DNA of 64,000 nucleotides, taken from the NCBI RefSeq assembly GCF_009931435.1, contig NZ_CP043414.1, one strand, 5' to 3'. This DNA comes from Escherichia coli. GTDB taxonomy: Bacteria > Pseudomonadota > Gammaproteobacteria > Enterobacterales > Enterobacteriaceae. The translations under genes and the position numbers were made by a program. Within the stretch, counting starts at the first letter, position 1; each line of letters begins with the position of its first letter. Below, piece after piece: positions 43,714-44,625 of the stretch. A model generated the notes under the pieces. That model ran no database searches. It was not told the DNA's origin and saw nothing but the letters and a program-made list of their open reading frames with translations.

Positions 43714-44625
43714 ATGAAAATTACCGTATTGGGATGCGGTGCCTTAGGGCAATTATGGCTTACAGCACTTTGCAAACAGGGTCACGACGTTCAGGGCTGG
43801 CTGCGCGTACCGCAACCTTATTGTAGCGTGAATCTGGTTGAAACCGACGGTTCGATATTTAATGAGTCTCTGACCGCCAACGATCCCGATTTTCTCGCCA
43901 CCAGCGATCTGCTCCTGGTGACGCTGAAAGCATGGCAGGTTTCCGATGCCGTCAAAAGCCTCGCGTCCACACTGCCTGTAACCACGCCAATACTGTTAAT
44001 TCATAACGGCATGGGCACCATCGAAGAGTTGCAAAACATTCAGCAGCCATTACTGATGGGCACCACCACTCATGCCGCCCGCCGCGACGGCAATGTCATT
44101 ATTCATGTGGCAAACGGTATCACGCATATTGGCCCGGCACGGCAACAGGATGGCGATTACAGTTATCTGGCGGATATTTTGCAAACCGTGTTACCTGACG
44201 TCGCGTGGCATAACAATATTCGCGCCGAGCTGTGGCGCAAGCTGGCAGTCAACTGTGTGATTAATCTACTGACCGCCATCTGGAATTGCCCGAATGGTGA
44301 ATTACGTCATCATCCGCAAGAAATTATGCAGATATGCGAAGAAGTCGCGGCGGTGATCGAACGCGAAGGGCATCATACTTCAGCGGAAGATTTGCGTGAT
44401 TATGTTATGCAGGTGATTGATGCAACGGCGGAAAACATTTCGTCGATGTTGCAGGATATCCGCGCGCTGCGCCACACCGAAATCGACTATATCACTGGTT
44501 TTCTCTTACGCCGCGCTCGCGCGCATGGGATTGCCGTACCGGAAAACACCCGCCTGTTTGAAATGGTAAAAAGAAAGGAGAGTGAATATGAGCGCATCGG
44601 CACTGGTTTGCCTCGCCCCTGGTAG
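43714..44625 (+). CDS. panE: 2-dehydropantoate 2-reductase PanE (ApbA), 303 aa
   Basis: [34 protein letters not shown] (Rossmann GxGxxG). Confidence 0.95.

Follow-up and report, generated by a model that had tools for sequence, protein, structure and literature searches.

The gene pairs panE/yajL and thiL/pgpA overlap in a 64,000-nt stretch of Escherichia coli DNA (contig NZ_CP043414.1; the whole stretch is referred to as the window), and both junctions are very probably genuine, old and ordinary same-strand overlaps, with yajL starting at the ATG at 44588 and pgpA starting 23 or 14 nt inside thiL. Both overlaps are already known: they belong to the standard E. coli annotation, are conserved at the level of the order, and are entered in a published K-12 table as "panE yajL -38" and "thiL pgpA -23", neither pair being marked there as a complex (Huber et al. 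2023, PMC10666635 supplement). Only mildly new are the comparative case for a TTG start codon in pgpA and the constraint on the terminal tryptophan of PanE that are set out below.

Table 1. Positions in the window of the two overlapping gene pairs and of their start signals.
Feature	Position	Strand	Remarks
panE (2-dehydropantoate 2-reductase)	43714..44625	+	303 aa; open reading frame and translation
PanE Tyr292	44586..44588	+
yajL Shine-Dalgarno AAGGAG	44575..44580	+	within panE codons Lys-Glu; 7 nt before ATG
yajL (DJ-1 family deglycase/chaperone)	44588..45178	+	196 aa, ATG start; PDB 2ab0, 5sy4; Pfam
panE/yajL overlap	44588..44625	+	38 nt; PanE residues 292-303 and YajL residues 1-13
PanE Trp303	44620..44622	+
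pgpA (phosphatidylglycerophosphatase A)	51122..51640	-	172 aa from the annotated ATG, 51640..51638
thiL (thiamine-phosphate kinase)	51618..52595	-	325 aa; stop TAA 51620..51618
thiL/pgpA overlap as annotated	51618..51640	-	23 nt; ATG formed by thiL Tyr319 TAT and the G of Asp320
Alternative pgpA start TTG (codon 4)	51629..51631	-	thiL Phe322 TTT and the G of the next codon; overlap becomes 14 nt
SD-like AAGGA (thiL Lys317-Gly318)	51642..51646	-	1 nt before pgpA ATG, 10 nt before TTG

The extents given to both overlaps by an earlier, sequence-only reading of the window were exact, with the open reading frames and the RefSeq annotation in agreement on 38 and 23 nt. Its statement that they are longer than the 1-11 nt overlaps elsewhere in the window was likewise borne out by the RefSeq annotation of the closest complete genome, in which cyoC/cyoD and xseB/ispA overlap by 1 nt each, mdlA/mdlB by 8 nt and cyoB/cyoC by 11 nt. 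The same two overlaps are annotated by RefSeq in the closest complete E. coli genome (E. coli 2017-02-2CC), and almost every one of the 5,424 E. coli genomes that match the 1.5-kb panE-yajL stretch does so at 95-99% identity (best match, 99.3%). The identity of PanE is secured by near-identical PanE chains in the PDB, by the Pfam domains ApbA (residues 3-143) and ApbA_C (residues 168-289) and by the RefSeq annotation of the closest genome. In the fetched Enterobacteriaceae loci the orthologues are of uniform length (PanE, 303-304 aa; YajL, 195-196 aa; ThiL, 322-325 aa); at both overlaps the gene lengths in the window match those of the orthologues, and no single genome carries an extension of its own.

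Compared with the 1-, 4- and 8-nt classes, overlaps of some 10-60 nt occur at about a quarter of the frequency, and the phase series -8, -11, -14 and so on, to which 38 and 23 belong, is several-fold commoner than the other (Huber et al., PMC10666635). [quoted passage not shown] 2008, PMC2478687). The panE/yajL pair has served as the illustrated example of a UAG codon inside an overlapping gene (Mukai et al. 2015, PMC4434889), and pgpA has been described as a gene that "partially overlaps with thiL", its Keio deletion taking out 20 nt of thiL (2024 study, PMC11143247). At both junctions, the last codons of the upstream gene would double, in the +1 frame, as the ribosome-binding site and first codons of the downstream gene.

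Conservation across the Enterobacteriaceae had been proposed as a check on the overlaps, and it was assessed for panE/yajL using 80 fetched loci around YajL homologues together with the window (81 measured junctions). The overlap is 38 nt in 68/81 junctions and 41 nt in 12/81, i.e., one or the other length in 80/81; the single junction for which no overlap length was obtained (L031) has a truncated panE match. The 41-nt cases are those in which the panE stop codon has changed from TAG to GAG or a similar sense codon, making PanE one codon longer and ending it at the position of an in-frame TGA. In the window, the TAG (44623..44625) is followed directly by this TGA (44626..44628). Outside the Enterobacteriaceae, the overlap is kept at 38-47 nt in the gene calls of three other families (Dickeya, 38 nt; Erwinia, 47 nt; Pantoea, 47 nt).

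The signals for yajL initiation are equally constant. The ATG is invariant in 80/80 distinct junction sequences, as is the AAGGA of the Shine-Dalgarno (SD) sequence, the sixth base being G in 74 of them and A in 6. The AAGGAG of the window is predicted to form a duplex of -8.7 kcal/mol with the 3' tail of 16S rRNA, and the 7-nt gap to the ATG places it at the working distance of a ribosome-binding site, as in a genuine overlap. The protein evidence agrees with this start: residue 2 of YajL aligns with residue 3 of human DJ-1, the Pfam domain DJ-1_PfpI covers residues 4-170, and the structure in the PDB was solved from the Met encoded at 44588. In an in vitro initiation assay (INRI-seq), a peak at the yajL ATG was recorded in 5/5 replicates, with a template that begins 30 nt upstream of the ATG and from which the panE start is absent (PMC9825163).

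The sequence-only reading had suggested that the overlaps might reflect mis-assigned starts, and that later in-frame candidates should be weighed in both downstream genes. In yajL there is no such candidate for 50 codons, the first being a GTG at 44738 (codon 51). The invariant ATG and SD sequence, the collinearity with DJ-1, the INRI-seq peak and the lack of a nearby alternative together indicate that the yajL start is right and the overlap unavoidable; the suggestion of a mis-assigned start thus fails for yajL and, as described below, holds only mildly for pgpA. Nor does yajL resemble the mis-annotated 5' extensions that form category i of Palleja et al., its N-terminus being collinear with DJ-1 and with its orthologues. 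Because yajL is read in the +1 frame with respect to panE, PanE and YajL (or ThiL and PgpA) could also be supposed to be fused by a programmed +1 frameshift. The frame of the downstream gene is all that speaks for a frameshift or for a mis-assigned yajL start, and both are extremely improbable given the conserved initiation signals, the solved structure and the double stop of panE, where loss of the TAG merely ends PanE one codon further on, at the TGA. Inspection by eye also found no frameshift-prone motif next to the panE stop.

The panE/yajL overlap would exist because a 12-residue C-terminal tail of PanE, lying beyond the folded domain, reads through the yajL start. These 12 overlap-encoded residues are outside the Pfam ApbA_C domain, which ends at residue 289; PanE 288-303 has a pLDDT below 50 in the AF2 model, i.e., it is predicted to be disordered, and the tail is absent from PDB chain 1ks9_A, which has 291 residues. 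Substitution within the overlap follows the codons of YajL, with a mean site entropy of 0.65 at yajL third positions, 0.15 at position 1 and 0.11 at position 2. The N-terminus of YajL is almost invariant and PanE residues 295-300 are variable, and selection within the overlap would therefore seem to be dominated by the YajL frame. To call the PanE tail "dispensable" is only partly right, however, because all 81 Enterobacterales sequences have Y292 and W303, and nearly all have E293, R294 and R301. The T of the Trp303 codon (TGG) falls on the silent site of yajL Pro11 (CCT) and never varies, and it is kept even in Pantoea, where YajL has His (CAT) at this position. The invariant terminal Trp of a tail that is predicted to be disordered hints, from sequence comparison, at constraint in both frames.

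The thiL/pgpA junction was approached through the first conserved residues of PgpA, the Pfam domain of which covers residues 24-161. The residues KD[VI]AKSRL..NPW are conserved, show ordinary third-position variation and begin right after the thiL stop, so pgpA translation must begin inside thiL. This is the case in all of the loci with pgpA downstream of thiL (46/46), and the conservation proposed as a check is therefore found at this junction too. The candidates for the start are few. The annotated ATG and a TTG at codon 4 both arise from codon choice in the conserved C-terminal G-Y-D-H-F of ThiL. The codon for Met17 of K-12 PgpA is CTG in the window, the next ATG lies at 51523 (codon 40), and any candidate beyond the TTG cuts into conserved residues. 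The later in-frame candidate that had been predicted for pgpA thus exists, as the TTG at 51631, and it is the sole nearby one; it lies 9 nt downstream of the ATG, trims three codons and leaves 14 of the 23 nt of overlap in place. Even with the TTG as the start, then, pgpA remains 14 nt inside thiL and is not a mis-annotated 5' extension.

Conservation differs between the two candidates. The TTG is present in 46/46 pgpA-bearing loci and the ATG in 31/46; where the ATG is missing, the Tyr codon is mostly TAC, giving ACG, and in three loci the TTG is the sole candidate start before the NPW motif. The ATG persists in Escherichia, Salmonella and Citrobacter without exception, and Dickeya has it as well. 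For Erwinia, Pantoea and Kluyvera, NCBI and JGI gene calls place the PgpA start at the TTG-equivalent codon; in the first two of these genera, codon 1 is also a TTG. The upstream Lys-Gly codons of thiL read AARGGR in all pgpA-bearing loci, and the predicted duplex of their AAGGA with the 16S tail (-5.4 kcal/mol) has a workable spacing for the TTG (10 nt) and a poor one for the ATG (1 nt). Codon usage in thiL is also unusual at these sites. Phe322 is TTT in 46/46 pgpA-bearing loci, which is exceptional since TTT and TTC are mixed in seven other invariant Phe columns of thiL; Gly318 is GGA or GGG in 46/46, while GGC and GGT dominate most of the other invariant Gly columns.

A natural contrast is offered by 14 loci in which pgpA is absent downstream of thiL, and in which a search of the sequence downstream of thiL found no pgpA remnant at E <= 1. 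They come from Enterobacter, Lelliottia, Leclercia and Pseudenterobacter, with one Superficieibacter and one unclassified MAG (L066; the others are L027, L030, L037, L044, L045, L051, L052, L053, L055, L060, L068, L070 and L072). Here Phe322 is TTC in 12/14 and TTT in 2/14, and the Tyr codon is TAC in 14/14. The difference in Phe322 TTT between pgpA-bearing and pgpA-less loci is large (Fisher test, 6.5e-11, not corrected for phylogeny), and since the absence of pgpA from the 14 loci probably reflects one deletion event in one clade, the contrast is not phylogenetically independent. In these loci, thiL extends one codon past DHF, and downstream of it stand palindromic GCCGGGTGGCG...CCCGGC units resembling REP elements.

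It is possible, if short of probable, that PgpA of Escherichia starts mainly at the TTG at 51631 and that the ATG is a chance by-product of the TAT codon of Tyr319; the overlap would then be 14 nt and PgpA 169 aa. Such a start would account for the universal TTG and the less constant ATG, for the loci with no other candidate, for the placement of the SD-like AAGGA, for the loss of the Phe322 TTT where pgpA is absent and for the gene calls in Erwinia, Pantoea and Kluyvera. It also fits a published table in which the annotated pgpA ATG has neither an INRI-seq nor a Ribo-RET peak (PMC9825163), although these absences are uninformative because many genes in that table peak in neither data set. The table has no Ribo-RET peak for yajL either. 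A tetracycline start-site paper makes no mention of yajL or pgpA, and the accessible part of the TRAINSPOTTER N-terminomics supplement contains thiL with neither of the two downstream genes found in it. As an initiator, ATG far surpasses TTG, and its retention in Escherichia, Salmonella, Citrobacter and Dickeya weighs against a TTG start, as does a short-leader transcript of K-12 that places the AUG 8 nt from its 5' end. In addition, PgpA of Shimwellia blattae as called begins MTIS and has no Leu at position 4, from which it follows that the ATG position alone can serve as a start, and PgpA may need Leu4, in which case the TTG would be conserved for its amino acid and not as a start codon.

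The reading preferred here is that the pgpA overlap, as judged from sequence, is real and 23 or 14 nt long, the start in Escherichia being the ATG, the TTG or both. The conserved elements are the TTG and, 10 nt before it, the purine-rich Lys-Gly sequence; the ATG varies among genera. Tentatively, the codon-4 TTG may be the functional and ancestral pgpA start in the Enterobacteriaceae and Erwiniaceae, for which the AARGGR of thiL would be the SD sequence, and the ATG of E. coli may be an alternative start that varies with lineage.

The sequence-only reading had also inferred tight translational coupling from the length of the overlaps. Coupling of this kind is not established at either junction and is not needed to account for them. 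Start-site masking by RNA structure was considered and rejected: the yajL junction RNA folds less well than 198/200 shuffles (z +1.8), that of pgpA folds about as well as its shuffles (z -0.1), and structure-dependent coupling is therefore unsupported. A scan of the window at the Rfam gathering threshold detected only the sraA sRNA (27131..27226, +) and the 4.5S SRP RNA ffs (9383..9479, -), and no known RNA family at either junction.

Were both downstream proteins nevertheless made mainly by tight coupling, ribosomes would have to move back 38 or 14-23 nt after termination and reinitiate, and the downstream proteins would be produced in fixed proportion to the upstream ones. The same-strand arrangement in the common phase is compatible with this, as is a consensus scan of the window in which neither junction showed a promoter-like or terminator-like site. 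The COG pair ThiL/PgpA is adjacent in 280 genomes, typically at -4 nt (PMC10666635 supplement), a spacing compatible with coupling in other lineages, and pgpA has a weak SD sequence and no in vitro initiation peak. However, yajL has a strong and open ribosome-binding site and initiates in vitro in the absence of panE translation, and overlaps of 38 nt and of 23 or 14 nt are outside the -4, -1 and -8 spacings of termination-reinitiation. In published reporter assays of short overlaps and of intergenic gaps, reinitiation was efficient at 4- and 1-nt overlaps, fell steeply as soon as short gaps separated the genes and was almost lost at an intergenic spacing of about 20 nt (PMC10666635). Neither pair is entered as a heteromeric complex in the published table ("CMPLX not", PMC10666635), and pgpA of K-12 has a transcription start of its own. 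Tight coupling as the main route to both proteins consequently seems unlikely.

Direct initiation is the best reading for yajL: ribosomes would be recruited directly to the strong, unstructured AAGGAG and start at the ATG at 44588, and ribosomes leaving panE may help without being required. The gene pgpA would be expressed from the operon mRNA that contains thiL; in K-12 it also has a transcript of its own, beginning 8 nt upstream of the ATG. This K-12 transcription start lies inside thiL and was confirmed by RLM-RT-PCR (Romero et al. 2014, PMC4681348), so part of pgpA expression bypasses thiL. Its counterpart in the window is altered. Both possible -10 hexamers (51648..51662, -) differ from those of K-12, TACATT having become CACATT and TAGACT having become TTGACT. 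Of the two, TACATT fits the mapped start better, because TAGACT, the hexamer named in the paper (PMC4681348), ends just 1 nt before it. The exact 58-mer of the window at this promoter region occurs in 14 of about 5420 E. coli genomes and that of K-12 in 1088. Taken together, the altered hexamers, the rarity of the 58-mer and the lack of a promoter-like site suggest that the short-leader pgpA transcript may not exist in the strain of the window. For pgpA, the favoured mechanism would be weak initiation on the operon mRNA, driven by the SD sequence or assisted by ribosomes, and supplemented in some strains by the short-leader transcript. ThiL residue 314 is Phe in the window and Leu in K-12.

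Among known systems, the two junctions can be set beside holD/rimI (PMC2478687), an overlap that is likewise genuine, conserved, co-directional and tens of bases long. The length of holD/rimI is genus-specific, rising from 32 bp in E. coli to as much as 56 bp in Salmonella and Yersinia, and so are those of panE/yajL (38, 41 or 47 nt) and thiL/pgpA (14-23 nt). Apart from the identity of the genes, the cases differ in their evidence: conservation of holD/rimI was established by protein and DNA alignment only, whereas here frame-specific substitutions and a comparison with loci naturally devoid of the downstream gene are added. With the stop/start overlaps (ATGA or TAATG, as in trpB/trpA; PMC10666635), the junctions share the arrangement of same-strand operon neighbours in which the downstream start lies inside the upstream gene, and the window has pairs of this type in xseB/ispA and cyoC/cyoD. 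Stop/start overlaps measure 1, 4 or 8 nt, however, and often join subunits of one complex; those studied here measure 38 and 23 (or 14) nt, the published table does not list their products as complex partners, and yajL initiates autonomously in vitro. The likeness of pgpA to category i of Palleja et al. is that a better-conserved in-frame start lies a few codons downstream; category i overlaps are longer than 60 bp and vanish when the start is corrected, whereas the pgpA alternative removes 9 nt and the overlap persists. The short-leader ('leaderless') pgpA mRNA of K-12 (PMC4681348) concerns the same gene and start region as in the window, with the difference that both -10 candidates are changed.

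Several further features of the surroundings were observed. A toxin-antitoxin-like pair encoding a DUF1778 protein and a GNAT acetyltransferase (39252..40155, +) lies between cyoE and yajR, and its two genes overlap by 17 nt (39613..39629), the third overlap of above-average length in the window and one that the sequence-only reading did not list. The pair is followed by a tetratricopeptide-repeat gene (40211..41146, -). Presumably, K-12 has neither the pair nor the tetratricopeptide-repeat gene between cyoE and yajR. In the genome of E. coli 2017-02-2CC, a gene for a pentapeptide-repeat protein (16600..18123 of locus L001) is located between yajO and pgpA; the window is without it, and yajO and pgpA are separated there by about 50 nt (51068..51122). 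Even with an intact thiL, deletion of pgpA lowers cellular thiamine pyrophosphate according to a riboswitch sensor (PMC11143247), and this functional link could explain the adjacency of thiL and pgpA in hundreds of genomes.

These results matter little beyond annotation hygiene and strain engineering, where both overlaps have already been a practical difficulty. The panE TAG is not simply recodable, because its change alters a serine of YajL (PMC4434889), and the choice between ATG and TTG, a difference of three residues in PgpA, would affect the design of precise deletions or tags at the locus. If the TTG is the ancestral start, synonymous choices in thiL (TTT at Phe322 and GGR at Gly318) would have been held by selection for pgpA expression, and the Enterobacter/Lelliottia/Leclercia group, which has lost pgpA at this site, would have been freed from the constraint.
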